Source: a virus | IMG/VR virus record: IMGVR_UViG_3300042402_004628 | Coordinates: 6,831 to 70,830 of that record | Strand: one strand, 5' to 3' | Length of the DNA stretch: 64,000 nucleotides | Shown here: positions 379 through 58,921 of the stretch, in pieces | Layout: every line of letters starts with the position of its first letter | Position numbering within the stretch: position 1 is the stretch's first letter | Notes under the pieces: generated by a model | Seen by the model: only the letters and a program-made list of their open reading frames with translations | What the model was told of the DNA's origin: nothing | Databases searched by the model: none | Made by a program: the position numbers and the translations under genes

Positions 379-508
379 TTTTTTCTCGTTTTATTTTTAT
401 TATACTAACCTTTTTGTCGCTCATCACGACTCAAGGGCAACAAGTACCCAAGGTTAATAGCCACACGAGGCTTTCATATAAATATATGAAGCTTTAAAAT
501 GTAATCAA

Positions 509-1111
509 TTAATATTCAAAAATAATTTTATTTGGTTGTAATCTACCGCTGATGGCTTGAGTATAAAAAGCATCGCCACTTTCATAAGTTCTATTAGATT
601 CAAATACAACCTCAGTATCCATTGATGGAATTTCAATATTTTTTCCACCCAAATCCATAGTCCCACTTAAAGTGTTTGTTTTTAAACCACTTCTATCGAA
701 CTCTAATTCAAAGTCTTTCTCAAAAGAATCATCATCACCAGTTAATTCCAATGAGCCATAAATCAAAACACTAATAGGTGATAAATAAACATCTTTAATA
801 CCATATGACCTGTATTCTATTTCAATTGAATAGTTGGCAACGGCCCCACGAAATGTTATATATGTGTCATACTCAACACCATCCACAATCACAGTTGCCC
901 CCCTTGTCCCTGGTTTTGCTATGTTTTTAAATAAAGCTTCCATATCGATATCTAGATCAATATCGGAACCACTTTTCAATTCGTTTCTAAAAACATTATT
1001 AGATGCGTCAGCCTCATTCATATTAGCTGATTCGTTAGATTGTTTGTCTTTTTGTTTTTTACTGAGTATGGCAGCAAATTGAGTTTCAGATATTCTATAT
1101 GTTTTTTTCAT
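509..1111 (-). CDS. hypothetical protein
   Basis: ORF track 200 aa; no recognisable motif. Confidence 0.5.
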   Translation of the reverse strand: MKKTYRISETQFAAILSKKQKDKQSNESANMNEADASNNVFRNELKSGSDIDLDIDMEALFKNIAKPGTRGATVIVDGVEYDTYITFRGAVANYSIEIEYRSYGIKDVYLSPISVLIYGSLELTGDDDSFEKDFELEFDRSGLKTNTLSGTMDLGGKNIEIPSMDTEVVFESNRTYESGDAFYTQAISGRLQPNKIIFEY

Positions 1112-1137
1112 ACTTTTTTACATATAAATATCAACAA

Positions 1138-1710
1138 CTACGATATAAGTTCAATAAAGTCACCCAAATTCGAAGATATTGGTGTTAATCTTTCAAACCC
1201 GTAAAAACCAGATTTACCCCTCGCTTTATAATAATCCGAAACCAATAAGTCAGATCTGGAATACATATCAATTATATTTGGTGTACCCACACCACATATA
1301 TAAAAATCGGTCTTACTTAACATACAGATAAAAATCGATTTCCGATATGTCTTTTTATAGACCATAGGGAATAATCCATAATTGAATGTGACAACATCTA
1401 TATTTTTTTTGGGTGCAGCTTGATTTAAAAACGAAATTCGATTATCATCAAAAATTTTGTCGTAATCAACTATATTGTATAAACCAAGATGTTGTTCTAA
1501 AACCAAATCACCTGCGGTTTGCATGTAAGTTTTACGATAAATCGTAATTTCTTGCTCAAATAATTTTCTACCTTTGGATTTTTCTCGCTCCTTTATGCGG
1601 TTTCCAATAACAGTCGCTAACTTTGTGCGTCTATCGGTATCAAGGGTCACCTTAGCAAACTTATTGACATAAGGTGTAAAATAATTATCGTATGTAAAAA
1701 TTGAACTCAT
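1138..1710 (-). CDS. hypothetical protein
   Basis: ORF track 190 aa; tightly spaced with the 509-1111 gene. Confidence 0.5.
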   Translation of the reverse strand: MSSIFTYDNYFTPYVNKFAKVTLDTDRRTKLATVIGNRIKEREKSKGRKLFEQEITIYRKTYMQTAGDLVLEQHLGLYNIVDYDKIFDDNRISFLNQAAPKKNIDVVTFNYGLFPMVYKKTYRKSIFICMLSKTDFYICGVGTPNIIDMYSRSDLLVSDYYKARGKSGFYGFERLTPISSNLGDFIELIS

Positions 1711-1780
1711 GGGACAAAATTAATAAAAGGTTTGGTAATAACCAAATTTTTTCATACCTTTGTAGAAAATTAGGTAGAAT

Positions 1781-3166
1781 ATGAGCAAATACACCGAGGA
1801 ACAACTTAAATTTATTAACTATAACGGGAACGATTCTGTTATATTGTCCGCAACCGCTGGTTCAGGTAAAACACACTCAACTGTTGGTAGGTTGAATAAA
1901 ATGATTGAAGATGGAGTCGATCCCAGTCGAATTATCTTCTTTAGTTTCACGAACGATGCTGTTAATGAGCTAAGATCGAGGATAAAACATGACGTTAAAA
2001 TAACCACAATTCATAGCTTCACAAGCTCAATTTTGGGTAAAATGGGGCTTTTTAAGCCAATTGTGACCTTTTATGAGTTTACTAACTGGTATAAGGACAA
2101 ATACAAACCACACCCAAAGGATCCGATGAAAATTAAAATGGATTACGCCAGAAATGTAGATAGATTCTACGAAGAGGGTGCTCAGATATCCGCTGGGTTT
2201 TCAGCTTATAAATTGCAAAATGCGGATAACATCAAAGTCATGAAACCTAGTTTTTATGATGAATATTCGGCTTTCATTAAAGAAACTAAGAGTCGAGATT
2301 TTTCTGATATGTTAATTGATACCGAGAAGTATTCAAGAAATGCTAAATATAAAGGATATTTTGAGAATTTGTATGATTATATTTTCGTTGACGAATACCA
2401 AGACACGTCAACACTTCAAATGAAGATACTATTGGCGATTAAAGCCAAGCAATATCATTTGATTGGTGATAAGAACCAATCAATATATGGGTTTTCTGGT
2501 GCGAATTGTGAAGAAATTGAGAATTTATTAATGAAAAACTCAACAGTAACTCAAATGACACTAACCAAGAATTTCAGGTCAACAAAAAAAATAGTTGAAA
2601 ACTCAAATCGATATAGTAGTCTAGTAGCGGTTCCACATCACGAAGAAGATGGCTACATACATGATAATCTAATCAACGATGTTATGATGTATAACATGAT
2701 GAATGACGGCAAACCTTTAACGGTATTGGCTAGAACAAACAATGTGATAAAAGAAATTGAAAAAGAATGCCTTAAGAAAAAAATTAAAATGCGTTATTTT
2801 AATTTTATATCACCTCAAGACATTGAAAAGATTAATGAGGGTAAAGTTAACCCATCATTAAAGAAAAAAATTGATTCGGTTTCGCCTTACTACGGAAACA
2901 CCTTTAATTTGATTAATTTTATTAAGGAAAATCAAGAATCAGATGTTTTTGTAACTAGTATTCACAAAAGTAAAGGTCGTGAATTCCCAAGATGTATTAT
3001 CATCAATTCAATCGACCCTGATATGTTGGCTGAAACGGACTATGATTTCGAAGAATATAGTTTTTTAACAAATAGTGGTGAGATTAATCAGGAAGCTAAA
3101 AATGTCCACTATGTGGCTGTTACCAGACCAAAAGAAGAATTATACTTCCTAGTGTACGAAAATTAA
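1781..3166 (+). CDS. UvrD/Rep/PcrA-family SF1 DNA helicase
   Basis: Walker A 'SATAGSGKTHS', motif II 'VDEYQDTS', C-terminal 'TSIHKSKGREFP' and 'VHYVAVTRPKEEL' typical of UvrD-like helicases; hairpin terminator follows. Confidence 0.8.
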   Translation: MSKYTEEQLKFINYNGNDSVILSATAGSGKTHSTVGRLNKMIEDGVDPSRIIFFSFTNDAVNELRSRIKHDVKITTIHSFTSSILGKMGLFKPIVTFYEFTNWYKDKYKPHPKDPMKIKMDYARNVDRFYEEGAQISAGFSAYKLQNADNIKVMKPSFYDEYSAFIKETKSRDFSDMLIDTEKYSRNAKYKGYFENLYDYIFVDEYQDTSTLQMKILLAIKAKQYHLIGDKNQSIYGFSGANCEEIENLLMKNSTVTQMTLTKNFRSTKKIVENSNRYSSLVAVPHHEEDGYIHDNLINDVMMYNMMNDGKPLTVLARTNNVIKEIEKECLKKKIKMRYFNFISPQDIEKINEGKVNPSLKKKIDSVSPYYGNTFNLINFIKENQESDVFVTSIHKSKGREFPRCIIINSIDPDMLAETDYDFEEYSFLTNSGEINQEAKNVHYVAVTRPKEELYFLVYEN

Positions 3167-3195
3167 AATGGGGGTTAAAAACCCCCATTTATTAT
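3165..3195 (+). terminator. hairpin terminator after the helicase gene
   Basis: AATGGGGG-TTAAAAA-CCCCCATT. Confidence 0.5.
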
Positions 3196-3349
3196 CTTCT
3201 TCCCTGTCCAGCGTACCTTTTTTTATAATTTTTTGACGCCTTATGTTTGCTTGCTTTTGTTTTTGAGTGAACGCCAGGTCTTTTTCTTTTTGGGTTAGAC
3301 CTAAAAAGTTTTGCGTTTGAAGTTGATCCCCCTTTTTTAGCTGCCATAA

Positions 3350-4525
3350 TTAAATGTAATTAATAATCTTTTTAAATCTATTAATCGCCTCGTTAAGTTT
3401 CTCATCTTCTTCGTAAACTTTACCTTCAGCACCAGCTCTCATTTTCATAAAAGAACCCTCTTCTTTAACTTCTTCCTGACCACCCTCTTCCATTGGCTTA
3501 TCTTCACCTTCAGCAAAAGTACCGTCTTCTCTTACAGCGCCCGATTCAATATCATCCATACTTGGTACAGCGTATTTGTTAGTCTCTTGTTCTTCGTAAT
3601 CTTTTATCATAGCTTCAATCTCATCAACACCATCTTGAGCGTTTTTGGTGAAACCTGTTAGTCTGCTATAAGCATTACTCAACCACTGTTTAACTTTTCC
3701 GAACATTTCTTCAACACCCTCAAAAACTTTCGAACCATCAATCTTTAATTGGCCTTTAACCTTTGAGGCTACTTTAGAGTTTTCTAAAATTTGTTCAAGA
3801 ACTTTTCTAGTGTTCTCGTTAACTTTTGTTAACGCAGTCTCAAACGCATCTTTATATGATGTTGTTAATTTTTCAGATTCCTGGATTATTTCAACCAACA
3901 TCTCATCTATTGAAATTTTTAGTTTTTCGGCACCTTGGGTCTGACCTTTAAATGCATCCATAACCTCTGGAACCAAAGCGCTTTTTTGTGTTTCCAAATC
4001 AGCTATTGATTCTTTATAAGTTTTTAACGCCTCATCTAATTGAGTTTGAATTGTTTTTAATTCAGCTATTTTTTGGTTAATTGTATTTTCCATATTTTCA
4101 TTTATATTTTTTTTATCGTCATTGGTTTTAACACCAATCTTGGTGGTTTTACCCCAAACTGATGTTCTTATTTTACCCTGTTTGTTTTTTAATGTCACCT
4201 CAACTTTTCCACTCGGCGTTTTAGCCCCACTTGAAACTGAAACTATTTCTTCACCACTGGTAATTATATCACCCTTTTTTAAGTATTGGGCTTCTTTTCG
4301 ATCAACACCTTCCTGTAAACTTTTTTCATCTTTATCAATACCCATGGCAACTCTAAAATCATTATAATCGTAAGCCAAGTCGGTTGCATATCTGTAAACG
4401 GCTATATCAATTTTACCGTCTGGGTATTTACCCCAGCAATACACCCATTTCTCACCACCCATTTCAAATGGCGTTTCATCTCTGTATGGTTTGTAATATT
4501 CAACAACATCCATAGTACTTCTCAT
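3350..4525 (-). CDS. coiled-coil protein (possible scaffold or structural role)
   Basis: 391 aa; long heptad-like K/E-rich central region; no enzymatic motif. Confidence 0.5.
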   Translation of the reverse strand: MRSTMDVVEYYKPYRDETPFEMGGEKWVYCWGKYPDGKIDIAVYRYATDLAYDYNDFRVAMGIDKDEKSLQEGVDRKEAQYLKKGDIITSGEEIVSVSSGAKTPSGKVEVTLKNKQGKIRTSVWGKTTKIGVKTNDDKKNINENMENTINQKIAELKTIQTQLDEALKTYKESIADLETQKSALVPEVMDAFKGQTQGAEKLKISIDEMLVEIIQESEKLTTSYKDAFETALTKVNENTRKVLEQILENSKVASKVKGQLKIDGSKVFEGVEEMFGKVKQWLSNAYSRLTGFTKNAQDGVDEIEAMIKDYEEQETNKYAVPSMDDIESGAVREDGTFAEGEDKPMEEGGQEEVKEEGSFMKMRAGAEGKVYEEDEKLNEAINRFKKIINYI

Positions 4526-5002
4526 AATGTGATATTTTAATGATAAATAGTTTGCTTTTAATTAAAGTTTCGTATATTTACATATAAATAAACCTTACCA
4601 CTATGACGTATTTTTTTTATTCAAAAAATGACAAAAAAAGAGAACCGATTAAAACTTTAAATAATATTGGTTCAAGGCTAGCTGCGGCAAAATATTTTTC
4701 AGAGTTAAAAAAATTATCTCTTAAAGAGTTTTTGAAAGTTTTTTCTATTTCCAGGTAAAATGGGTTTTAATAAAAGGCATATAGATTTTGAAAGGATAAA
4801 AAGTCATTACAAGCAAGATGGTATTGAATCTTTAAAACTTTTATTCTCTCCTAAAGTTGATGCTTATATTTTTTCGGATATGATTTCTCACAAAATTTAT
4901 GAAATGTTTGAGAATAAAGAATATAGAAAAATATCGTGCCTTATCAGAATTGATTAAAAATCTTTTACTAAACGGTGATATATTTATTCCAAAAATAAAT
5001 AA

Positions 5003-5239
5003 ATGCACGGAAAAACCATAAAACAACTTTTAGCATTAAAAGAAGAACTCAATTCAATTTTAGAAACTCGTAGTGAGAAATTATTAGAATCAACCAAATC
5101 ATCTTATCTTCAAGAAGAATTACAAAGAAACATTGTCGATTACATCTCAGAAACAATTGACCAGATCGATATGATTATGGACAACATCGAAGGTGGTGAA
5201 TATGATGAGAACGATAATGAAGAGTTAGATGATTATTAA
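5003..5239 (+). CDS. small acidic protein
   Basis: 78 aa, D/E-rich C-terminus; terminator hairpin at 5285-5314. Confidence 0.45.
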   Translation: MHGKTIKQLLALKEELNSILETRSEKLLESTKSSYLQEELQRNIVDYISETIDQIDMIMDNIEGGEYDENDNEELDDY

Positions 5240-5284
5240 GATATTCCACCTTAGAGTGGTATTTTAGGATCGTTCATGGTTATG

Positions 5285-5314
5285 GACAAACTAAGGTCGG
5301 AATTCGCTACTCCG
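5285..5314 (+). terminator. intrinsic terminator
   Basis: GGTCGGAATTCGCTACTCCGACC + T6. Confidence 0.6.
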
Positions 5315-5359
5315 ACCTTTTTTATTTGCGCTGGATATTTATCTAAGTAACACATTTCA

Positions 5360-5977
5360 ATGAATCATCATATCGAAGACGAATTAAAACAAAAGTACCC
5401 AGACATCAGGTTTGAGTTATACCCAAATGAAAAGCACAAAAGGATATATCTCACTGGATTTATGGTTCCACCTAACATGCGTGGAACTGGTATTGGTACT
5501 TCTTTTATGAACGATTTAACAAGTCTTGCTGATCAACACGGTTATAAATTAACATTAACACCATCAAGCAGTTATGGTGGAAATGTGAACAGATTGAAAG
5601 ATTTCTACCAGAGATTTGGTTTTGTTTTTAATAAAGGTGATAATCGTGATTTCACACACAAGGAAGATATGTACAGGGATCCTAAGATTAATGAAGAGGA
5701 TTCGTCAAGCACATCGAGCACATCAAGTGGTTCAAGTGGTGGGACATCAGCCTCAAATAGTCCAGTACCAGATAGAGTTAAAAAAGGAAAAGCAAATCCA
5801 ATATCAAATACTGGTAAATACGAATTTGGTACAACCAGAGGAAAAGCAAATCCAATATCAAATACTGGTGCTTATGACTTTGGAACAAATCGTGGCCCAG
5901 CAAACCCAATATCAGAAAATAAAAATAATCGCCTGGATGAGGCGATTATTAATATGAAAAAATTGATTAATTTTTAA
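5360..5977 (+). CDS. GNAT-like N-acetyltransferase domain protein with three C-terminal tandem peptide repeats
   Basis: GNAT motif A-like 'MRGTGIGTSFM'; three ~18-aa repeats 'KANPISNTG.Y.FGT.RG' encoded by a 54-nt period at 5786-5920. Confidence 0.5.
   Translation: MNHHIEDELKQKYPDIRFELYPNEKHKRIYLTGFMVPPNMRGTGIGTSFMNDLTSLADQHGYKLTLTPSSSYGGNVNRLKDFYQRFGFVFNKGDNRDFTHKEDMYRDPKINEEDSSSTSSTSSGSSGGTSASNSPVPDRVKKGKANPISNTGKYEFGTTRGKANPISNTGAYDFGTNRGPANPISENKNNRLDEAIINMKKLINF
5786..5920 (+). repeat. three tandem 54-nt coding repeats inside the GNAT-like gene
   Basis: GGAAAAGCAAATCCAATATCAAATACTGGT repeated at 5786 and 5840; diverged third copy at 5894. Confidence 0.8.
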
Positions 5978-5978
5978 T

Positions 5979-7073
5979 TTAAGACCATTTGTTTAACATT
6001 TGGTAATTGTGAACTTCGTTCCATTTATTTGCGTCATAATTACCCCCTTTCCAATATTGGAATGAACCTATTCTTATATCACCCCCAGCTGTTAAGCCCA
6101 ATCTGAAAATATTATCAAATATCAGTTCAGTTGTTCCAACTTGTTGTACATAATTTTCATTACTATCATCAGCAATAAATAGTTGACCAGCATCGTTTCT
6201 ACCAAAAATAAGGGTTATCCAAGTATTAACTTGTGCACTCATTGATACGGTATCAGCACCCATAGTAAATTGGTATACGTTTGTAGCAATATCATATCTA
6301 AGTCTCGTAATCCCCCCATCAGCATAAATTATTGCTGGTGAATTACTGGCCTGCGGTGTGAATCTGAGCCTCAACGCAAACATAAAAGACTCACCAGATG
6401 AAGTATTAAGGGGTGCTATATATGAAGCCGCATTGGATGAATCTAAATCTATGTATAAATTTGCCGCATTAAATCTTCTATTATAAGTTGAATTATCGCC
6501 CGCGGTTTGTATTGATGTGGAGATATTTCCAGCGACATTTTTTGTAAACCATCTTTCTATTACACCATCAGTTGCTTGAACCAAATCGTAACATTTTGTT
6601 AAATTAGTCTCAAGAATGTCGCAATTAAGATTACCGAAATCAATATTTAACATTAAATTAGGGGTGTCAGCGTATTTGTATTTTGATAAATCAGCCAAAA
6701 AATGATTTAAATTTTCATTTTCAATAACGTATCTTTTGGCAACATCCACGTCACTATAATACGTGCCATCAATTTTTATTGAATGCAAACTATTAATTAT
6801 GTGTACAATTTCCGCATTGGTTTTACCAGTGACGTGATATGTTGGAATCGTGGGCTCACCGCCAACACCTTCTACATTTCCTCTTGATACGATATAATAT
6901 TTTTCGCCACCAAAATTACCCGCAGGATAACCTGGTCTCCAAGTAAGACCCGTTGAATTTCCGTCTTGAAAATTAAACCCTTCATTAATGTGGCCATAGC
7001 AATATTTACCAATTCTATGATATTGATCAATCGTTGGTGCGGTACCGTATTGTATAGTTACTGGAACTGACAT
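5979..7073 (-). CDS. hypothetical protein (possible virion or fibre protein)
   Basis: 364 aa, G/N/T/S-rich beta-type composition; divergent from the 7137 gene. Confidence 0.45.
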   Translation of the reverse strand: MSVPVTIQYGTAPTIDQYHRIGKYCYGHINEGFNFQDGNSTGLTWRPGYPAGNFGGEKYYIVSRGNVEGVGGEPTIPTYHVTGKTNAEIVHIINSLHSIKIDGTYYSDVDVAKRYVIENENLNHFLADLSKYKYADTPNLMLNIDFGNLNCDILETNLTKCYDLVQATDGVIERWFTKNVAGNISTSIQTAGDNSTYNRRFNAANLYIDLDSSNAASYIAPLNTSSGESFMFALRLRFTPQASNSPAIIYADGGITRLRYDIATNVYQFTMGADTVSMSAQVNTWITLIFGRNDAGQLFIADDSNENYVQQVGTTELIFDNIFRLGLTAGGDIRIGSFQYWKGGNYDANKWNEVHNYQMLNKWS

Positions 7074-7136
7074 AATTTAATATTTTACAATAAATAGTAT
7101 TAAAGTTTAAAATAACTCGAGATATTTATATTATAT

Positions 7137-7850
7137 ATGAATTTAAACGAGCAGATATTAAGAATGAAAACCATGATCGGTTTATCCGAGGTTACCATTC
7201 CACAATCAATTAAAAAATCGGTTGGTGATGTTTTGTTTGGTTCAAATCCAATAATTGCAAAAATTCAAAACAAACCAATTGAAAAGAATACCCCATACGA
7301 GGATAACCTGGTTGACAAAATAAAGGATTGGACATTTCAATCAACAGAAAAATCCGAGATGGGCGTTGTATCAACAATATCCGATTTAATTAAACTAAAA
7401 AAATATTTTCCAGAGGTTCTCAACCCACCGTATGGTGAAAAAGTTTACAGAGGAACATCGGTTAAATTACCAGAGCTATCCAAATTCATAAAAGAAAACC
7501 CAGAACATGATGTTTTGGATAACGGTGCGGTTAAATTTAAAACACCCTACCAGTATACCCCAAAAAGAGAAGTTAGTAGTTGGAGTGCATCCTTGTTCTA
7601 CGCATCATCATTTCAGGGCAAATCATTCGAGAGTGCTGTGAATGTCCCAGTTATTTTTGAAACAACTGTCGATGACACATTCATTATGAATCCAAAAGTT
7701 ATGAACATCATATTTAAATCAACGGGCGGTGTTCACCAGGATTTTATAAGGGACGAGGACGAGATTATGAAGTACAACCCGAGTGGTACTTACCATCTAA
7801 TTTTGTCAGAAGACGAATACGAAATATTCGCACCAAATGCCGAGGTCTAA
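7137..7850 (+). CDS. hypothetical protein; member of the shared N-terminal leader family
   Basis: N-terminus 'MNLNEQILRMKTMIGLSE' matches leaders of the 9075-9692, 10065-11639 and 12454-13137 genes. Confidence 0.6.
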   Translation: MNLNEQILRMKTMIGLSEVTIPQSIKKSVGDVLFGSNPIIAKIQNKPIEKNTPYEDNLVDKIKDWTFQSTEKSEMGVVSTISDLIKLKKYFPEVLNPPYGEKVYRGTSVKLPELSKFIKENPEHDVLDNGAVKFKTPYQYTPKREVSSWSASLFYASSFQGKSFESAVNVPVIFETTVDDTFIMNPKVMNIIFKSTGGVHQDFIRDEDEIMKYNPSGTYHLILSEDEYEIFAPNAEV

Positions 7851-7937
7851 AACCGCCGAAGGCGGTTGCGAAAAAATTTTTCTTTTAAATGAATTTTTCT
7901 TATTTTTGTGATATATATGTAAAATAATCAGAATATA

Positions 7938-8120
7938 ATGTCGATGACCAACGAAGAAATAGCAGAAGAAATCTACCACCAAGCGTTTGATCTCGGATTT
8001 ATCGATTTACTTCGTGAAAAGGTTGGTTATATTTACAAAACAACGCATGTGAAAGATCACAGTGATGTTGTGCAAAAAGCATATAATTTATTGGTTACAG
8101 AAGGTTTGATACAACTATGA
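7938..8120 (+). CDS. small hypothetical protein
   Basis: 60 aa ORF followed by hairpin+T-run at 8167-8197. Confidence 0.45.
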   Translation: MSMTNEEIAEEIYHQAFDLGFIDLLREKVGYIYKTTHVKDHSDVVQKAYNLLVTEGLIQL

Positions 8121-8166
8121 GATTCAGAAGAAAATACAATAACAATAATAATAAAATAGTAATTGG

Positions 8167-8197
8167 AAATCCTGTCATTTGACAGGATTTTTTTTTG
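8167..8197 (+). terminator. intrinsic terminator
   Basis: AATCCTGTCATTTGACAGGATT + T9. Confidence 0.65.
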
Positions 8198-9040
8198 CGC
8201 CAAAAATTAAACAAAAAAAAACAAATGAAAAACACAGAAACTTACAATGAACTCGTGCAGAAGATGCGCAAATTCTTTCTTGAAAGAGGATTCAAGGAAG
8301 TGCCAACACAATCAAGATTATCAATTCTCGCGGCTTGTGAGAACCCACACTCGGTTAAAACGTTCGAGTATGGTGGTTTGATCTGGCCGTTGCCACAGAC
8401 TGGACAGATGTGGCTTGAGTATGAGTTGTTAAAGAATCCAGAATGGAATGGCGTATTTTGCGTATCAACATCGTACAGAGAAGAAAAGAACCCAATCCCA
8501 GGAAGGCATGAGCTTATCTTCCCAATGTTTGAGTTTGAGTCAAAGGGAACCATGGAGGATTTAATCAAAATGGAAGGCGACCTTTTGGCTTATCTTGGAT
8601 TTGGTGATGAGATGGTTCAAGTTAAATACGATGATGTGTGTGAGGAATACGGTGGGGTACCAATTCTTGAGGATGAGCATGAATCCAGAATGTGGAATGA
8701 AAAGGGTAATGTTGTTTCATTACAACACTTCCCAATCAGAACAAATCCATTCTGGAACATGAAACACAATAACGATGGGATTTTCAACAAGGTTGATGTG
8801 ATTCTTTACGGACAGGAAACAATTGGATCCGCCGAGAGAAGCTGCGATGTTGAGAAGATGAGAGAAATGTTTTATGCTATTGAGAACGGTGCGTATTGCG
8901 CCAAGTTGTTCGAGTTATTCGGAAAAGAAAGGGTTGAGGCTGAGCTTGAGGAATTCTTGAAGCACAATTTCTTCCCAAGATATGGTGGTGGAATCGGGAT
9001 GACCAGAATGGCCAGAGCGTATGAGTTATTAAAGAAATAA
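8195..9040 (+). CDS. class II aminoacyl-tRNA synthetase catalytic-core-like / asparagine synthetase A (AsnA)-like protein
   Basis: motif-2-like 'STSYREEKNPIPGRHELIFPMFEFES' and motif-3-like 'GGGIGMTRMARAYELL' (compare AsnA 'GGGIGQSRL'); 281 aa with no anticodon-binding domain. Confidence 0.55.
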   Translation: MRQKLNKKKQMKNTETYNELVQKMRKFFLERGFKEVPTQSRLSILAACENPHSVKTFEYGGLIWPLPQTGQMWLEYELLKNPEWNGVFCVSTSYREEKNPIPGRHELIFPMFEFESKGTMEDLIKMEGDLLAYLGFGDEMVQVKYDDVCEEYGGVPILEDEHESRMWNEKGNVVSLQHFPIRTNPFWNMKHNNDGIFNKVDVILYGQETIGSAERSCDVEKMREMFYAIENGAYCAKLFELFGKERVEAELEEFLKHNFFPRYGGGIGMTRMARAYELLKK

Positions 9041-9070
9041 AAAAAGGGGCGAAAGCCCCTTTTTCTTTTT
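9041..9070. terminator. bidirectional terminator between convergent genes
   Basis: A-run GGGGCGAAAGCCCC T-run. Confidence 0.65.
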
Positions 9071-9074
9071 ATCT

Positions 9075-9692
9075 TTAATCTTCTCCGCCCCAATCTTTAT
9101 AATCACCAAATCTTTCGTTGTCTTCATAACCAGCGTTGTACGCTTCGATTTCTTCTGGTGTTAAATCGGTGATTCTCTCACCTTTGTAAGTTCCTTCTGG
9201 ATACTTATGTGGGCTCTTGGGTCTTCTGTAATATGAATCGGCGTGACCGCGATCATATGGTGATCCGTGCGAATCATCGTATTTCTCACTTCTACCCTCC
9301 TGAAATATTTCAGTTCTTGGTTCATCGTAATGATCCAACTTACCTATTGGGTAACGTTCGCCCGTCTCAGCGTTGTATTTAATGATTATCTTACCATCAT
9401 CACTATCACCTATAAAATAATGTACATTATCATCAGCTAAACTATAATATAATGGTCTGTCATAATCATCAAACTCTCTTTGAACAACTTTTTCACCACT
9501 TGCGGATTCGATCGCGGCTTTTTCGAAATCGAAATCACTTTCCATTTCCTCGCCACCTCTTTCGGAATTATAGTTAAAAATATCATCGGTGTATGCATTT
9601 GGATTATCCACCTTTGATAGATCAATTTCTTCATTAAGACCCATTATTTTGCGGAGTCTCGCAATTTCTTCATTTAATGTATTCTTTTTCAT
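9075..9692 (-). CDS. acidic hypothetical protein; shared N-terminal leader family (start moved to second ATG)
   Basis: 'MKKNTLNEEIARLRKIMGLNEE' leader; D/E/Y-rich body; ORF track start 9749 is an upstream extension. Confidence 0.55.
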   Translation of the reverse strand: MKKNTLNEEIARLRKIMGLNEEIDLSKVDNPNAYTDDIFNYNSERGGEEMESDFDFEKAAIESASGEKVVQREFDDYDRPLYYSLADDNVHYFIGDSDDGKIIIKYNAETGERYPIGKLDHYDEPRTEIFQEGRSEKYDDSHGSPYDRGHADSYYRRPKSPHKYPEGTYKGERITDLTPEEIEAYNAGYEDNERFGDYKDWGGED

Positions 9693-9741
9693 AGAAAAAA
9701 ACAATTTATTGATAAATAGTTTGTCAAATCCAAAAATATTT

Positions 9742-10056
9742 ATGAACATGGTAAAACTTTTTGAGAGAATACATATCCCATTGTGGATCGCAAAGGATAT
9801 GTTCTGGATGTTGGGTCAGGGCGAACTCTCATTGGCTTTCGCGATACCAACCATAATATTATCAACAATACTCATAACAGTAAAACAGGGGTCGGAAAGG
9901 TGGCTCGAGATGATGATGGCCTTTTGGTTATCAGCCAATACCTTATGGATGTCCCACGAGCTTTTTCATACGGACACAAAAGAAATTGCATTAACCTGTT
10001 TTTTATTTGGCATTTTAACAATTCCAATCTATTTATTAAAGATAAAAGAAGAATAA
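9742..10056 (+). CDS. small multi-pass membrane protein
   Basis: In-frame ATG at 9742 inside track ORF 9589-10056; three hydrophobic segments. Confidence 0.45.
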   Translation: MNMVKLFERIHIPLWIAKDMFWMLGQGELSLAFAIPTIILSTILITVKQGSERWLEMMMAFWLSANTLWMSHELFHTDTKEIALTCFLFGILTIPIYLLKIKEE

Positions 10057-10064
10057 AACTAGTT

Positions 10065-11639
10065 ATGAAACTAACTGAGGAAATAAAGAAAATGCAATCC
10101 ATGATGGGCATTATGTCCGAGGATGTGAAAATATACGCAAACGGTGTTGGATCTGAGGTGTTTAATGATAACGAACATTACGGAAAGGTTGATGATATTA
10201 ATTTAAATGACACCATAGCAAATGAACCGTTTAAGGATATGGAATACATGGATAAAAGTTCCAATGTCGATGATATGGTTCAAGCCTTGAAATCTGGTGA
10301 AGAGCTGCCACCAATACTTGTTATTCAACACCCCTTCGACCAATCAAAATATTTGGTTGTCGATGGAAACCATAGAAGATACGCATATGACCGCGCAGGT
10401 GCTGATAAGATTCCAGCCGTTGTGATTAAACCAGAGGATGTTTTGTTAATGCAATCCGATTGGGGTGATCCAGAGGAAAAGGCGATCAGATTATCTGATG
10501 TTATATCCGATCCAGAGTTGTTTGCTCGAGAAAACACAAGAATGTTAATTGACAAGTATTTTGTTAAACCAGACGGATCACATGAGTTCGAATTGAATGA
10601 AAATTTATATGAGGAAAAGAAAAAAGCCGATCGTTGTTTAAGAATAGCGAGAAGAAAATACAGCAAACCATCAGCATATAGATCTGGTGCAATCGTTCAA
10701 TGCAGAAGAGGAAAGATATGGAGAGGTTTGAAGGAAGAGGAGATCCAAATGATTGACAACGCACCAGAGGAAATGCAAGGTTTGATCGCCAAGGCTCACG
10801 ATGCTTTGACGTGGAAGAGGGGTCGAAAAGAATATGCTCCAGATTTTAATGAACTTCAAACATGGGTGGATGCTTATTTGGAGACTGACGGTGGAATGCA
10901 TGAAGCGAAGAAAACCGATTTCTCAAAGGAGAAAAAGAGCGGACTTCACGGATGGTTTTCAAGAAGAGGTGGTGGCGGAAGCAAAGGATGGGTTGATTGC
11001 AACACATGCAGAAAAGTTGACGGAAAGAAAAAATGCAAGGCTTGTGGAAGACAAAAGGGTGAGGTGAGAGCCAAGTACCCATCATGCAGACCAACACCAG
11101 CATCATGCGGAACACCAGGAAAGGGAAAATCTTGGGGCAAGACAAAGGAAGAGGGTTACAGCTTGAATGAAGCCAAGGAGATGAAGAGAGTTGCTTTGCT
11201 TTTCATTGTGATTGACAACGAAGCGTTGTTGTTCAAGAGAAGCGAAGACGAAACAACAAATCCAGGAAAATACGGAATGCTTGGTGGTGGAATTGAAAAG
11301 AATGAAACGCCAGAGGAAGCAATCGTGAGAGAGATCAGAGAAGAAGCTGGTGTTGAGTTGAAATCATTCAAACCACTGAAGAAATATATTTACAACAACG
11401 AGTGTGAATTAAACGTATTCTACACAAACGAATTTCCAATTGATGATGTTGTGCTTGACAAGAACGAACACACATCGTACAAATATTTCACGATGGAACA
11501 ATTGATAGATATGGATCCAAAGGATATGATTGGTTCCAACAAAGAAATCGCGAAGGATTACAACGAGATCGCAAACAAGAAAAAGAAATTGGAAGAAGAG
11601 ATAGAGAGAATAAAAGCTACGATGAAGATTCTTATTTAA
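10065..11639 (+). CDS. ParB/Srx-like nuclease domain + Cys-rich linker + Nudix hydrolase fusion; shared N-terminal leader family
   Basis: 'LVVDGNHRRYA' ParB-type motif; Nudix box 'GGGIEKNETPEEAIVREIREEAGV'; Cys cluster CNTC..CKAC..C..C; N-terminus 'MKLTEEIKKMQSMMGIMSE'; the track ORF start 9783 overlaps the membrane gene. Confidence 0.7.
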   Translation: MKLTEEIKKMQSMMGIMSEDVKIYANGVGSEVFNDNEHYGKVDDINLNDTIANEPFKDMEYMDKSSNVDDMVQALKSGEELPPILVIQHPFDQSKYLVVDGNHRRYAYDRAGADKIPAVVIKPEDVLLMQSDWGDPEEKAIRLSDVISDPELFARENTRMLIDKYFVKPDGSHEFELNENLYEEKKKADRCLRIARRKYSKPSAYRSGAIVQCRRGKIWRGLKEEEIQMIDNAPEEMQGLIAKAHDALTWKRGRKEYAPDFNELQTWVDAYLETDGGMHEAKKTDFSKEKKSGLHGWFSRRGGGGSKGWVDCNTCRKVDGKKKCKACGRQKGEVRAKYPSCRPTPASCGTPGKGKSWGKTKEEGYSLNEAKEMKRVALLFIVIDNEALLFKRSEDETTNPGKYGMLGGGIEKNETPEEAIVREIREEAGVELKSFKPLKKYIYNNECELNVFYTNEFPIDDVVLDKNEHTSYKYFTMEQLIDMDPKDMIGSNKEIAKDYNEIANKKKKLEEEIERIKATMKILI

Positions 11640-11734
11640 CCTTCGCAAAGACAAACGCTACCTTCACATTCTGGGCAGCAAGTTCCTGGTTCAACCACGG
11701 GTAAAAACATTAAAGACAATTTTTATTATAGAAA

Positions 11735-11765
11735 AAAAAGGATCGATTAGTTCGATCCATTTTCA
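11735..11765. terminator. bidirectional terminator
   Basis: A8-GGATCGATTAGTTCGATCC-T4. Confidence 0.55.
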
Positions 11766-12298
11766 TTTATATTCTTTTCAACATTCTGTTTCATCCCGCG
11801 AACCATTTTAAGAAGACTGGAGTTATCGGTCTTAACGATGGTTGTCACCTGTGGTTCAGGTTCACGTGGCATTATCATGGCTGATACCTCACCGTCCCCA
11901 GAACCAGAACCGCCAGTTTCCATGCGAAGAGTTCTTTCGAAACGAACTGGTGAGCTGGTTGAGGTTGAAACAACTTTATTATGTGTCTTTTGAGCTTCAC
12001 TCTCCATATTGGTCAACATCTCAAGAATTTCCTTCTCACGAGATATGAATCTGTCCGTGCAAACGGTTTGATTGCTGATAACAATATCATTAAGTTCATT
12101 CACCCTGTCACTAAGGCTCTTTATCATAACCTTTTGGTTTTCCACCTTGTGTAATAATTCCTCATTATCTTGGGTAAGACCTTCGATAAGCTTAGGGCCA
12201 ATTGAGATAATCACAATGGACAAAAGAACAATCCCAAGAGCAGCAAGACGCTGTTTCATGGAGATCTTTGAGATGATTTCTGAAATATATTTAAACAT
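11747..12298 (-). CDS. membrane-anchored coiled-coil protein
   Basis: N-terminal TM 'LAALGIVLLSIVIISIG' then coiled coil; palindrome 32-56 nt upstream. Confidence 0.5.
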   Translation of the reverse strand: MFKYISEIISKISMKQRLAALGIVLLSIVIISIGPKLIEGLTQDNEELLHKVENQKVMIKSLSDRVNELNDIVISNQTVCTDRFISREKEILEMLTNMESEAQKTHNKVVSTSTSSPVRFERTLRMETGGSGSGDGEVSAMIMPREPEPQVTTIVKTDNSSLLKMVRGMKQNVEKNINENGSN

Positions 12299-12329
12299 GT
12301 CTCTATTTGTTTAAATATAAATATTCGTG

Positions 12330-12354
12330 TTTACAGTAAATTGTTTACTGTAAA
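12330..12354. promoter_or_regulatory. perfect 11-bp inverted repeat with a 3-bp spacer (operator-like palindrome)
   Basis: TTTACAGTAAA-TTG-TTTACTGTAAA, 32-56 nt upstream of the 12298 start codon. Confidence 0.45.
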
Positions 12355-12453
12355 CTAAATTAAAAGCAACGGGGGTAAAAATTACCATAATGTGTCACCA
12401 TCCCCAGGAGGGTGTTCGGAATAAAGGGTTTGTAAAAATTGTGGGGTTATGAA

Positions 12454-13137
12454 TTATATTCCAACGGTTGGTGAGTCCATGTTCTCACTTAAACCATAAT
12501 GTTTCTCAACCAAAGTTTCAAAGTAATTTAAAAGTCCTTCTTTACCAATACCACTTTCTTTGGCTTTCGCAATGAAGTCATCAGCACTAGCACCAATTCC
12601 ACCTTGAATCCAGTCCACATCAGCAGCTGTGATTATTTTTTCATTGATTGGTTCCTCACTCATTCTATTTAAAAAACTATTTAATTTTCCATTACTATAA
12701 GTTAAACCAAGTTCTTTGGTTAACTTTTCAAGTACTCTAACCACTTGAGTTTTATATGGGTCTGAATAAGCTCTAACAAAAGATCCAGAGCCACGATTAA
12801 ACATGAAACCGTATATTCTTTGATCTATTTGACTAATCACATATTTTTTCTTCTCTTCTGGTTCTGTTGGTATTGACCCAGTATATTTTTGGTCTGACTC
12901 AACAAAATCGGTTACCAGTTTATTAAAAGCTTCCACAAATTCTTTTGCTTTTGTTGGATTTTCTTGCCAAGAATCATTACGAGCACTATTATTAATTGAT
13001 AAACCTTTAATTATTGGTTCCATACGTCCAAAGCCATCATCAATTATTTTAACGGAATCAACGAACTCGTTTAGATTCTCATTAAGGCCCATCATCTGGC
13101 GTATTCTTAAAACTTCTTCATTTAAGGTATTATTCAT
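12454..13137 (-). CDS. hypothetical protein; shared N-terminal leader family
   Basis: 'MNNTLNEEVLRIRQMMGLNE' leader. Confidence 0.6.
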   Translation of the reverse strand: MNNTLNEEVLRIRQMMGLNENLNEFVDSVKIIDDGFGRMEPIIKGLSINNSARNDSWQENPTKAKEFVEAFNKLVTDFVESDQKYTGSIPTEPEEKKKYVISQIDQRIYGFMFNRGSGSFVRAYSDPYKTQVVRVLEKLTKELGLTYSNGKLNSFLNRMSEEPINEKIITAADVDWIQGGIGASADDFIAKAKESGIGKEGLLNYFETLVEKHYGLSENMDSPTVGI

Positions 13138-13190
13138 GGTAAAATCAATTAATTTACTATAAATATCTGAAAAATGGATAAAAAAAACAC

Positions 13191-13243
13191 CCCCAGAAAT
13201 TTTTTGAGAAAACGATTTGAAAATAAAACAAGGGTCACTTTTT
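13191..13243. repeat. left copy of a ~50-bp direct repeat flanking gene 13217-13840
   Basis: CCCCAGAAATTTTTTGA.AAAA.GATT...ACAAGGGTC..TTTT shared with 13853-13903. Confidence 0.7.
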
Positions 13244-13840
13244 AGTTTATGGTTTTTTTATTACTTTTGTTTTATGATATTACAGAACACAAATACCGAG
13301 GATAAACTTTCATATTGCAAGGAAGCATCGGATGTACAAGAACCAGCGTTTGTTGAGTTCATAAACGGGTTGAATGGATTGGTTACATTGAAGATTAATC
13401 CAGATAAGGAATTTGATCCATACACACACGATTTGGTTGTGAATGGAGCCCCAGGAGATCTTAAGACACAAGACACACCATTCTTTAAATCTGAGACGCT
13501 TTACGATATCGATCCTCAGTGGGCCATCACATATAACCATAAGGATTACCTGAGGTACAAGAAGAAGTACACAAGCGTTGGAAAGAACGTTGTATTGTTC
13601 TTTGACGTGACAAGAAAGGATGAGGTTAAATACGATGTGAAGACATTCCCCATGAGGGCCATCTTTTACACAAAGGCATCAGACATTGAAAAGATGATTG
13701 AGAACAAAGAGGTTCCCCTTCATGAGTACCTTAACAGAAAGAATGACGACCAGGGAAACGCAAAGAGCAGTTATGTGATCGATGTCAGACGCTTTAACAT
13801 GATATACTATTCAGGAAAAGGATTCAGGTTGAAAATCTGA
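13217..13840 (+). CDS. hypothetical protein flanked by ~50-bp direct repeats (alternative start 13274)
   Basis: ORF track 207 aa; the first ATG lies inside the upstream direct-repeat copy. Confidence 0.5.
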   Translation: MKIKQGSLFSLWFFYYFCFMILQNTNTEDKLSYCKEASDVQEPAFVEFINGLNGLVTLKINPDKEFDPYTHDLVVNGAPGDLKTQDTPFFKSETLYDIDPQWAITYNHKDYLRYKKKYTSVGKNVVLFFDVTRKDEVKYDVKTFPMRAIFYTKASDIEKMIENKEVPLHEYLNRKNDDQGNAKSSYVIDVRRFNMIYYSGKGFRLKI

Positions 13841-13852
13841 GAAAAAAAAATT

Positions 13853-13940
13853 CCCCAGAAATTTTTTGAAAAAATGATTCCCCACAGAACAAGGGTCGAT
13901 TTTCCAGAAAAAAGTACCCCCAGAAATTTTTTTCAGAAAT
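13853..13940. repeat. right copy of the direct repeat plus a partial third copy (13916-13940)
   Basis: See the left copy. Confidence 0.7.
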
Positions 13941-13957
13941 ACTTCATTTAGATATTT

Positions 13958-14030
13958 GAGCCCCCCTTTGCCCCCCATAAACGGGGGGTAGGGAGGGGGA
14001 TACGGGAGGGGGGAGGGTGTACCACCCCCT
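13958..14030. other. GC-rich structured element at the convergent A/B junction: C6/G6 hairpin followed by a G-tract run (G-quadruplex candidate)
   Basis: GAGCCCCCCTTTGCCCCCCATAAACGGGGGGTAGGGAGGGGGATACGGGAGGGGGGAGGGTGTACCACCCCC in an otherwise AT-rich window. Confidence 0.6.
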
Positions 14031-14124
14031 ATACTGCTATTTTCTTTTAATGTGCAAGTTTATATAAAACAAAGTTATCCACACTTGTGATGTGGATAAC
14101 ATTATTTGTTTATGTGGTTAAAGG

Positions 14125-14646
14125 TTATCCGAAGATAACCTTTTCCCCACACTTGATATTCTCAATACCCTCAACCTTGATAGTACGGATAACAATATCA
14201 TTATCCAAACCTTGATTGATTGCCTTGCTTGGCTTTTGTTTGAACTGCTTGATAACCTCAACTTGTTCAGCGTTTGCCTCAACCCCGTCAACGAAGTATT
14301 TAAGCGTTTTAGAAGTGTTACAAGCGAACTTTAAGTACTCACACGATAGGTCGCTTTTCTTTGCTACGATAGAGCCGTTAAAGCCGTCATTTACGGGCGT
14401 AAACCAATTTTCTTTGGCTACGAAGTCAGCCTCTTTACCCTCACGAATACGGGCGTTATTCACCATATTTTGATAGTTAGCGTTTAACAACATATTGTAG
14501 TCAACTAACTTGGTGATAACGGCACTACGCAAAGGGTTGCCCGTCTTTAACATTTTTTGTTCAACCACTGCTAATACTTGGGCGAACTTTGCACTGCCTC
14601 CGTCATTGATAAGGCTTGCGATTACTTGTGATTTTTTGTTTTGCAT
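14125..14646 (-). CDS. hypothetical protein, paralog A of a duplicated family
   Basis: ~50% identical over full length to the 24502-25017 protein (shared NDGGSA, KTGNPLR, REGKEADF, YFVDG.EA.AE.VE.IK.FK blocks). Confidence 0.65.
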   Translation of the reverse strand: MQNKKSQVIASLINDGGSAKFAQVLAVVEQKMLKTGNPLRSAVITKLVDYNMLLNANYQNMVNNARIREGKEADFVAKENWFTPVNDGFNGSIVAKKSDLSCEYLKFACNTSKTLKYFVDGVEANAEQVEVIKQFKQKPSKAINQGLDNDIVIRTIKVEGIENIKCGEKVIFG

Positions 14647-45105: not shown

Positions 45106-45657
45106 ATGGGCGGAGATGAGAGAAGCGCGATAGAAGTGATCGCTGAATTCACGTCACCATTTGAGGATTCACTTAACGTGTTAATCCTAGGTGATCATAT
45201 AGATGATCTTGAGGCTGCTGAAGTAAAGGCGGCGTTCGATCGAACCAGGAATGAATTCCTGAGTCTGCCATCGGTGGACGAGGAGAAGATGGCCCCGATC
45301 AAATATATTAAAATTAATACATCCGAATTTTTCAGGGGGAAGATCAGTAATAAAATTAAGAAGGAACCCTGTGTTGTATATCTGGATCACGAGCTCAGCA
45401 AAAATGCTTTGAACATCCTCACCAATAATAACAGTGAGGTGGATGATCTGGAGGAAATGCTTCTGGAGAAATATCTTTTCGGGATCAACCAGGAAAAATT
45501 TATTCTGGATCTCACCAGCTGTCTGGATGAAAGGATCGAACTTCTCATGAGTGCCATGGACGCCAGAGCTGGGGAATTCAATTATGTTCTGGTGGAAAAG
45601 TATCTGGCGATCTGGATATATGCGCTTGACGAATTCGCCCCATTTCAGTTCGATTAA
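45106..45657 (+). CDS. hypothetical acidic protein
   Basis: 183 aa. Confidence 0.45.
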   Translation: MGGDERSAIEVIAEFTSPFEDSLNVLILGDHIDDLEAAEVKAAFDRTRNEFLSLPSVDEEKMAPIKYIKINTSEFFRGKISNKIKKEPCVVYLDHELSKNALNILTNNNSEVDDLEEMLLEKYLFGINQEKFILDLTSCLDERIELLMSAMDARAGEFNYVLVEKYLAIWIYALDEFAPFQFD

Positions 45658-45735: not shown

Positions 45736-45794
45736 GCCTGGGAGGCAACCCTTTCTCTCTGTTTTGTTTTTGATTTCAAAAAGTCCTCCCAGGT
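45736..45794 (+). other. long-range inverted repeat (CCTGGGAGG ... CCTCCCAGG) downstream of the ORF-less promoter
   Basis: 9-bp arms about 40 nt apart. Confidence 0.5.
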
Positions 45795-45803
45795 TCTGTT
45801 CTC

Positions 45804-45942
45804 GAATTCAAGTTTAAGTTTCTACTAGAATTCAACCCCGTATAATTTTTAGAATTCATATTGCTGGATCTTCCAGAATTCATATCCGTAACTTTTTTAG
45901 AATTCATATATAAATAAAAAAGGTGAACCCTTTTAGAATTCA
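45804..45942. repeat. array of six (T)AGAATTCA repeats (iteron-like), the first three on a 24-bp register
   Basis: GAATTCA at about 45804, 45828, 45852, 45886, 45900, 45936. Confidence 0.65.
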
Positions 45943-45957
45943 CCTTTCAGTTTTTTT
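45920..45957 (+). terminator. hairpin + T-run closing the ORF-less transcript from promoter 45685
   Basis: GGTGAACCCTTTTAGAATTCACC ... T7. Confidence 0.5.
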
Positions 45958-46664: not shown

Positions 46665-46742
46665 ATTTACGCCGTTTTTTTAATAATTTAAAAAAAATAT
46701 ATCGAAAACTGTCGAGGGGCTCAAATTTTTTTCACTTGTTCC

Positions 46743-46792
46743 TGGGTGGGAAATGGGATTTTGTGGGGGTAAGTGGGGGATTGTGGGAAATA
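46743..46792. repeat. G-run repeats (GTGGGAAAT / GTGGGGG) in the 280-bp non-coding spacer at the convergent C/D junction
   Basis: GGGTGGGAAATGGGATTTTGTGGGGGTAAGTGGGGGATTGTGGGAAAT. Confidence 0.6.
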
Positions 46793-46941
46793 GTGTAAGT
46801 AACTGATTATCAGGTAATTCAGTGACTGTCAGTGAGTTATCTGAATGCACTCATTTTCAGTCAGTTGCGGGTATGTGTGTTTCTCGGCAGAATTCACATG
46901 GGATCCTGGGCAATATAATGTAAAATGAATGCATTTTAAGG

Positions 46942-58704: not shown

Positions 58705-58921
58705 CTTCTTTTTTAATATCCTCTCGAGTTAATTCTTTTTCAGCTTGGTGCATGAAGATAATCTCTTTTGTTTGTTCATCAACTGTGCAAGCGGCAATTG
58801 GTTTATCAACTCGGTAATGATATTCTTCTCCTAGCATACCAACTTCTCCGTTGACAACTTCAAAGGCATCAAACTCCTCTGGTAGGGTGTTGAGCCACGT
58901 TTTTAATTCTCCTAAATTCAT
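58691..58921 (-). CDS. hypothetical protein
   Basis: ORF track. Confidence 0.4.
   Translation of the reverse strand: MNLGELKTWLNTLPEEFDAFEVVNGEVGMLGEEYHYRVDKPIAACTVDEQTKEIIFMHQAEKELTREDIKKEDGKD

Follow-up and report, generated by a model that had tools for sequence, protein, structure and literature searches.

A conserved composite of phased A/T-tract units and a G-run array on one strand where two promoter territories meet in a lineage of ~300-kb phages

A 64,000-nt stretch of a viral genome (IMG/VR record IMGVR_UViG_3300042402_004628, positions 6,831 to 70,830), hereafter called the window, was analysed around a GC-rich island at 13958-14030 on the plus strand. The island lies in the intergenic region 13841-14124. 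To its left is an open reading frame (ORF) of 188 aa (13274-13840, plus strand), and to its right is a gene of 173 aa (14125-14646, minus strand), the last gene of a block with host-type (early) promoters; both are context and not parts of the element described here. The island is the G-tract half of a composite non-coding element of 200-400 bp, of which the other half consists of phased A/T-tract units. The first-pass annotation of this DNA had recognized the island itself, but it overlooked the units at 13178-13245 and 13843-13957, which form the other part of the element.

The island contains C6-TTTG-C6-ATAAAC-G6 (13961-13988, plus strand), that is, C-runs and a C6/G6 hairpin, the latter formed by G-C6-ATAAAC-G6 at 13970-13988. 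The G-tract array G6-T-A-G3-A-G5-ATAC-G3-A-G6-A-G3 (13983-14017, plus strand) is a G-quadruplex (G4) candidate with the core GGGGATACGGG at 13996-14006 (plus strand). The last feature is a small hairpin, GGGTG-TAC-CACCC ending at 14027, with a terminal C-run (14015-14029, plus strand); its stem survives loop indels in the relatives L028, L045 and L005. The two strings quoted in the first-pass annotation, GCCCCCCATAAACGGGGGG and GGG-A-GGGGG-ATAC-GGG-A-GGGGGG-A-GGG, were located exactly where it had placed them, at 13970-13988 and 13991-14017, and two extra runs were found, C6 at 13961-13966 and CACCCCC at 14023-14029.

The description of the island as compositionally alien held: its GC content is 0.70 against 0.37 for the window, the top value for any 73 nt in the 64 kb. 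It contains six G/C runs of at least 5 nt inside 75 nt, compared with a maximum of three in 200 first-order Markov versions of the window. The G4 prediction that had been proposed as a check gave a G4Hunter maximum (25 nt) of 2.56 in the island, which is also the maximum of the window, versus a simulated maximum of 2.32. A canonical G4 motif (at least four G3+ tracts, loops of 1-7 nt, high G4Hunter score) is present at 13983-14017, and canonical G3+N1-7 motifs occur at two places only in the window, the island and 46744-46790. When folded as DNA, the island hairpins were no better than shuffles (z -1.3 and -1.4). In G4-aware RNA folding, the G-runs paired with the flanking C-runs (-50.3 kcal/mol), and the tracts alone formed a G4 (-17.5 kcal/mol). 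The worry that the island might be an assembly artefact was excluded, because six independent assemblies (JGI, NCBI, ENA) share its sequence with one to three differences. A 55-aa ORF at 13978-13811 (minus strand) was rejected as coding, since the DNA repeats do not share one reading frame and the stretches free of stop codons vary among lineages in both strand and extent; no consistent ORF over the element was found across lineages. Three IMG/VR matches to the exact 19-mer hairpin (L001-L003) were rejected as homologues: all three come from a single unrelated phage, in which the hairpin stands alone between flanks that bear no relation to those here.

The units are arranged in tandem to the left of the island and are about 65 bp long, each made up of an A-tract, CCAGAAATTTTTT, GAAAA and a GGGTCRA box. 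Unit U0 (A8-CACCCCCAGAAATTTTTT-GAGAAAAC...AAGGGTCAC; 13178-13245, plus strand) lies on the far side of the 188-aa gene from the other two and is homologous to unit V1 of the relative L016. Unit U1 (A8-TTCCCCAGAAATTTTTT-GAAAAAATG...AAGGGTCGA; 13843-13907, plus strand; 65-nt spacing) is identical in six assemblies, and unit U2 (13908-13960, plus strand) closes in the junction box GATATTTGAG, then C6. The junction box is the GGGTCRA box in inverted copy, and GATRTTTGA(G/C)CCCC is kept in groups A, B and C of the relatives and in L060 and L065. All three exact copies of CCAGAAATTTTTT in the 64 kb fall within 13193-13932, and the units are confined to one locus both in the window and in every relative locus of 5-13 kb. 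Because of this confinement, the idea that the units act as a general promoter was rejected. It is also unlikely that they serve the next gene as an upstream activating sequence for its ATATTTATA promoter, since in the window and in L016 a gene parts the units from that promoter. In both cases the inserted gene leaves units beside the island, which indicates that the units belong with the island and not with the next promoter.

Relatives were gathered in three ways: from the flanking proteins, from an alignment of the 173-aa family, and from the unit pair used as a DNA pattern. Unrelated tandem repeats made up about half of what this pattern matched in metagenomes, and nothing but unrelated repeats came out of GTDB genomes scanned for the unit pair; searches of GenBank phages by megablast and tblastn with the region and both flanking proteins found nothing. 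Conservation, which had been suggested as a check, was seen clearly: the element is at the same syntenic place in about 15 diverged lineages of ~300-kb phages, for which 15 representatives were compared (the window, L018/L053, L010/L082, L016, L020, L027, L037, L056, L058, L059, L060, L065, L070, L071/L080 and L014). The common layout is two to four units, then a same-strand array of G-runs (G3-G10). Among the 15 representatives, 13 have arrays of four to eight G-runs, joined by short linkers (TA, TAC, TAAC or TATA). G4Hunter scores of 2.2-2.9 were likewise obtained in 13, being the sole region at or above 2.0 in their loci, and a canonical G4 motif is kept in nine. The recurring core is GGGG-WTAC-GGG, and more generally WWAC stands ahead of each G-run.

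G-tract arrays are retained across these diverged relatives although the linker sequences differ, and the island is therefore a functional candidate and not noise. U2 and the island are 58-67% identical to relatives whose four-fold degenerate sites are saturated (identity 0.24-0.41); since this identity persists where four-fold sites are saturated, we concluded that the element is under purifying selection. The polarity from units to G-tracts is constant in all of the ~15 lineages, the rearranged L014 included, and the C-rich strand is the sense strand of the adjacent gene in every lineage where that gene ends at the element. The C6/G6 hairpin, by comparison, is not conserved: its loop is 4-16 nt among relatives, the C-run is absent in L027, and the arrays of L056, L058 and L070 have no C-tracts at all on the G strand.

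Homopolymer lengths vary among near-identical contigs (L020 versus L033/L036; the window versus L017/L028/L005), the variants being C11/C6, C8/C7/C9 and G7/G6. Either genuine hypervariability or sequencing errors in poly-G may account for these differences. In L014 (IMGVR_UViG_3300042924_008490), 1.5 kb of non-coding DNA at 4470-5980 contains two units and the G-tract array together with TTTCCTTTGAA repeats and over 20 copies of CGTATAT, which include three 43-nt tandem repeats.

The 188-aa ORF sits inside the unit array and has no family or phage match in PHROGs, Pfam or GenBank phages. The order is U0-gene-U1-U2 in the window versus gene-V1-V2-V3 in L016, and the gene is absent in group B; this different placement and this absence suggest a mobile or recently inserted gene. 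In group B, a 175-aa gene, the terminator, the island, the units and a homologue of the window gene 11747-12298 follow one another on one strand. The window has two extra genes between the units and 11747-12298, one of which is the 188-aa gene on the plus strand within the unit array. The first-pass annotation had placed the island at a convergent junction of two modules. This is literally true here (13274-13840 plus, 14125-14646 minus), but it is not a conserved property, since the flanking genes are co-directional in group B; the convergent look results from the one inserted 188-aa gene, the sole plus-strand gene there. Close relatives do not carry the same genes to the left of the element. 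The 173-aa protein has no PHROGs or Pfam match and contains an Sm/Hfq/WYL-like barrel; homology of its family with a 216-aa family at the same position in groups C, D and E was unsupported (hhalign probability 0.8%). A perfect 10-bp inverted repeat, AAAGGTTATC-CGAA-GATAACCTTT, spans the stop codon of the 173-aa gene (14120-14143). Upstream of gene 11747-12298, a near-palindrome, GTTTACAGTAAA-TTG-TTTACTGTAAAC, was found at 12325-12357. It looks like a putative operator, because its TTTACAGTAAAC motif also precedes the homologues in L060, L065 and L045.

The 173-aa gene is followed by its own intrinsic terminator (14064-14107, minus strand), with the stem GTTATCCACA/TGTGGATAAC forming a hairpin at 14074-14100 and then a T-run on the minus strand. 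This hairpin was called by a terminator scan, has an RNA z of -5.6 and agrees with the definition of an intrinsic terminator; it scores as a plus-strand terminator too. The stem is kept in relatives, with an A-to-G change that pairs (G-U) on the minus-strand RNA only. It also holds two perfect DnaA-box 9-mers (TTATCCACA) in inverted orientation. This pair (14075-14099) was rejected as an origin signal in favour of a terminator stem in view of the T-run, the z of -5.6 and the G-U-compatible change; because that change leaves a G-U pair on the minus-strand RNA only, the 9-mers are most simply parts of the terminator stem.

Two classes of promoter motif divide this part of the genome. The motif TTGCACAT was found 25 times in the window versus 3.8 expected, always between 14.05 and 49.0 kb (territory noted as 14050-46331), and its copies with extended consensus agree with the gene strand. 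It is the extended -33 box of the Bacteroidota-type promoter TTTGCACATTAAA...TAnnTTTG (-33 TTTG, -7 TAnnTTTG), a -33/-7 consensus that has been described for Bacteroides (e.g. PMC4747536). The other motif, ATATTTATA/GATATTTAT, stands 15-35 nt ahead of gene starts and occurs only in 0.4-13.2 kb (477-13167). The element is exactly at the border between these two territories. An extended -33 box, TTGCACATTAAA (14047-14062, minus strand; box 14050-14057), points into the island, with a -7 sequence that reads TATAGGGG and not TAnnTTTG. Complete host-type promoters are present at the equivalent place in L020, L058 and L080, on the C strand and reading into the island with no intervening ORF; most lineages lack such promoters.

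A second, weaker G-tract cluster was noticed at 46680-46800 of the window (GGGTGGGAAATGGGATTTTGTGGGGGTAAGTGGGGGATTGTGGG, G4Hunter 2.08), after a GAGGGGCTCAAATTTTTTT box and G-rich on the plus strand like the island. It lies just past the last gene with a plus-strand host-type promoter, so that it marks the other border of the block. In the 78%-identical relative L077, the cluster at 46744-46790 is kept only in part and has no canonical G4 motif.

The reading that we tentatively favour, as a possibility and not as a probable one, is that the element is a polar barrier for early transcription, in which a C-rich, Rho-loading RNA is combined with a G-rich template. Minus-strand polymerases that slip past the terminator at 14074-14100 would copy the G-rich template. 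The resulting RNA, 40% C here and nearly G-free and mostly C in relatives without C-runs in the array, would be an ideal loading site for Rho. The unwound G-rich template could fold, into a G-quadruplex or hairpins, and act as a roadblock, and the A/T-tract units downstream might be a release zone, or else bind a phage factor by which the stop is tuned. In this way the element would insulate the neighbouring genes, whose promoter motif is a different one. Rho favours C-rich, G-poor RNA (review PMC12360218). In 78-nt windows of the minus-strand RNA, C is 0.40 and G 0.17-0.19 (C/G 2.1-2.4), so this RNA has the C content well above G over ~70-80 nt that characterizes a rut site. The position at the border, the C-rich sense polarity, the promoters that read into the element and the sequence constraint are all consistent with such a barrier.

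Several observations weigh against the barrier. A Rho site needs no homopolymers, no GGGGWTACGGG core and no two to four highly conserved phased units, which points to sequence-specific recognition of the DNA. In L014 and L064 the element has the reverse orientation with respect to the 173-aa gene, and transcription of the upstream gene would yield G-rich RNA there. The cluster at 46744-46790, at the other border, is G-rich in the sense of early transcription, that is, of opposite polarity, and is partly conserved. The conserved polarity does not amount to independent observations because the lineages share descent. In this lineage the G-runs of the minus-strand RNA can pair with its C-runs, which would hinder Rho loading. 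The similarity to YaeO is at the level of a generic small barrel (5% identity). Compared with known rut sites and Rho-dependent terminators or attenuators (lambda tR1, leader attenuators), the element shares a C-rich, G-poor sense RNA that directly follows a block of genes and a weak spot where read-through may occur, and in some lineages it lies in a promoter-proximal leader. It differs from them in its C5-C10 homopolymers, conserved core and phased A/T-tract repeats, and, in this lineage, in having G-runs in the same RNA.

The main rival, rather unlikely in our estimate, is a replication origin or another nucleoprotein site at the DNA level. The units would be iteron-like repeats on bent AnTn DNA, the AT-rich units would unwind, and the transcribed G-array would assist in opening or marking the site. 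Transcription-activated or R-loop origins are known from T4 oriF/oriG, ColE1 and mitochondrial CSBII. With these, and with lambda ori and P1 oriR, the element shares a promoter directed into a non-coding repeat region, an AT-rich segment beside G-runs, and phased direct repeats. As in iteron arrays, at least three direct repeats (U0, U1 and U2; two to four units in relatives) lie beside an AT-rich region. Each unit has two conserved boxes at ~65-bp phasing, an inverted box stands at the junction, and the unit/G-tract polarity is kept throughout the lineages. The restriction of the units to a single locus, their staying by the island and not by the downstream promoter upon gene insertion, and the three lineages in which promoters read into the element also suit an origin, as does L014, which is the most origin-like version of the element with its 1.5-kb non-coding region and its CGTATAT repeats. 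The incoming RNA from the mapped promoters, however, is C-rich and not G-rich, which by established thermodynamics is the least stable type of RNA-DNA hybrid, and the units are ~65 bp long against ~20 bp for iterons. Neither an initiator nor another replication gene was recognised next to the element, whose neighbours match no known family (the helicase lies 11 kb off), the two DnaA-box 9-mers sit in a terminator stem that tolerates the G-U change, and the element is at the downstream end of a transcription block and not at a point of divergence.

There is some chance, though a smaller one, that the element is something other than any of the readings named here.

An RNA element is improbable. 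It could be a C-rich non-coding RNA or 5' leader bound by a phage protein (e.g. the Sm-like 173-aa protein), or a G-rich plus-strand 3' untranslated region or small RNA that ends at the bidirectional hairpin. Such a role would suit the C-strand promoters directly upstream in L020, L058 and L080, the plus-strand score of the hairpin at 14074-14100, the Sm/Hfq/WYL-like barrel in the neighbouring gene, and the folding of the plus-strand RNA of the island, with a z of -3.0 against shuffles. The minus-strand RNA, on the other hand, has a z of -0.75, most lineages lack the promoters, and hairpin positions vary between lineages, while homopolymer stems cannot show covariation. The loop-free AnTn junctions are a feature of DNA and not of RNA. 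A search of Rfam 15 gave no match at the gathering threshold in the window, and at 13100-14200 the sub-threshold matches were of chance level only.

It is very unlikely that the element is a pac signal recognised by terminase on concatemers in the manner of herpesvirus pac1. In pac1, an A/T-rich element is flanked by G/C runs, and its G4 potential is conserved across a terminase-using virus family (PMC13595911). The island has an A/T-rich stretch flanked by G/C runs, C6-ATAAAC-G6 followed by further G-runs, and the element is single-copy. In the cosB/cosN layout, repeat units stand next to a GC-rich site, and the units beside the island resemble it. Three contigs (L005, L010 and L057) end within their islands. 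These ends are at three different positions, all in G/C homopolymers, as expected of poly-G sequencing or assembly failure. The assemblies of 298,814, 305,387 and 306,401 nt run through the island, which is internal at differing distances from the nearest contig end (112, 14 and 37 kb), so it is not at genome termini or in terminal repeats as pac1 is. For these reasons the contig ends were rejected as physical termini, and we attribute the breaks to failed assembly across poly-G/poly-C runs. A headful pac site may still be present. The element has no known pac2 partner, and no terminase gene was found in the 64-kb window. T4-type packaging is not known to require a pac site. T4-like virion genes have been reported for the lineage to which the phage may belong (PMC12619734).

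A recombination hotspot or landing pad, whether a candidate polar Chi-like cluster (repeated ACGGGG), a G4-stimulated site or a target for mobile genes, is highly unlikely. WWACGGGG precedes most G-runs on one strand in all lineages, and the 188-aa ORF is at different positions of the unit array in groups A and C and absent in B. Variable gene content to the left of the element among close relatives and variable homopolymer lengths among near-identical contigs would also agree with it. Against it, searches of the 188-aa ORF revealed neither a nuclease nor a recombinase domain, and the strong purifying selection on the units would be unexplained. The G4 of Neisseria pilE with its cis-acting sRNA promoter is similar in that a G4 motif adjoins a promoter with strict polarity; unlike in pilE, the orientation of the promoter here makes the G-rich strand the template, and there is no linked recombination system.

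The leading idea of the first-pass annotation, a strong bidirectional terminator of the plain Rho-independent type formed by the C6/G6 hairpin, can hardly be right: like intrinsic terminators this is a GC-rich hairpin between two gene ends, but no T-run follows the stem on either strand and the RNA would lack a U-tract, the scan missed it and called the adjoining hairpin at 14074-14100, which is the true terminator, its DNA fold is unremarkable (z about -1.3), it is missing in L027 with loops of 4-16 nt elsewhere, and the identical 19-mer in the unrelated phage (L001-L003) is a lone hairpin without G-tracts.

The wider genome gives some context. No tRNA or Rfam match and no close GenBank phage relative were found for the window, which encodes NAMPT, a ParB_N-NUDIX fusion, a class II tRNA-synthetase-like protein, a helicase and many unknowns; a tRNA-synt_2 ORF is located at 8195-9040. 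NAMPT and the ParB_N-NUDIX fusion point to an NAD salvage set. An adenylosuccinate-synthetase-like ORF matches a PHROG that holds PurZ-type enzymes, which makes 2-aminoadenine DNA a possibility; this ORF and those of the NAD set were noted at 58918-59943 and 62621-63991, 9783-11639. Downstream of the gene at 45106-45657, the interval 45790-45950 holds an irregularly spaced (20-30 nt) intergenic array of some seven (T)AGAATTCA copies, all of which include the EcoRI site GAATTC. The exact 173-aa protein is encoded on contigs of 282,888 and 298,814 nt, and relatives lie on contigs of 305,387 and 306,401 nt. The recently described "moraphages" are aquatic jumbo phages of 200-307 kb that are predicted to infect Bacteroidota, lack a phage RNA polymerase, and have T4-like virion genes and a lysyl-tRNA-ligase-like VOG (PMC12619734). 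The ~300-kb scale and the host-like Bacteroidota promoters fit this group, of which the phage may be a member; the window does not reach the virion genes.

We found no description of the element in the literature, and the moraphage paper (PMC12619734) does not mention it. G4 motifs, rut sites and iteron arrays are known individually; what is new is that phased AnTn units and a G-run array confined to one strand are coupled, and conserved as such, at the border of two promoter classes. It is conceivable, though we give the idea limited credence, that an array of G-quadruplex/i-motif DNA together with phased bent-DNA repeats is an essential cis-acting site across this lineage of 300-kb phages, serving as an origin, packaging or boundary signal (cf. 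pac1, CSBII). If true, this would be the first phage non-B-DNA element conserved beyond the saturation of synonymous sites. G4 motifs of phages usually appear as statistical counts; here a polar array keeps a single syntenic position and is paired with a defined partner, the phased units. Poly-G and poly-C runs of this kind break short-read assemblies, as in the three contigs that end in islands, which is relevant to the recovery of such genomes. The element is a concrete case in which non-B DNA or C-rich RNA may have a function in a bacterial virus, and, because it marks the border of two promoter classes in an uncultured jumbo-phage lineage, it offers a handle on how gene classes are separated in time without an RNA polymerase of the phage's own.
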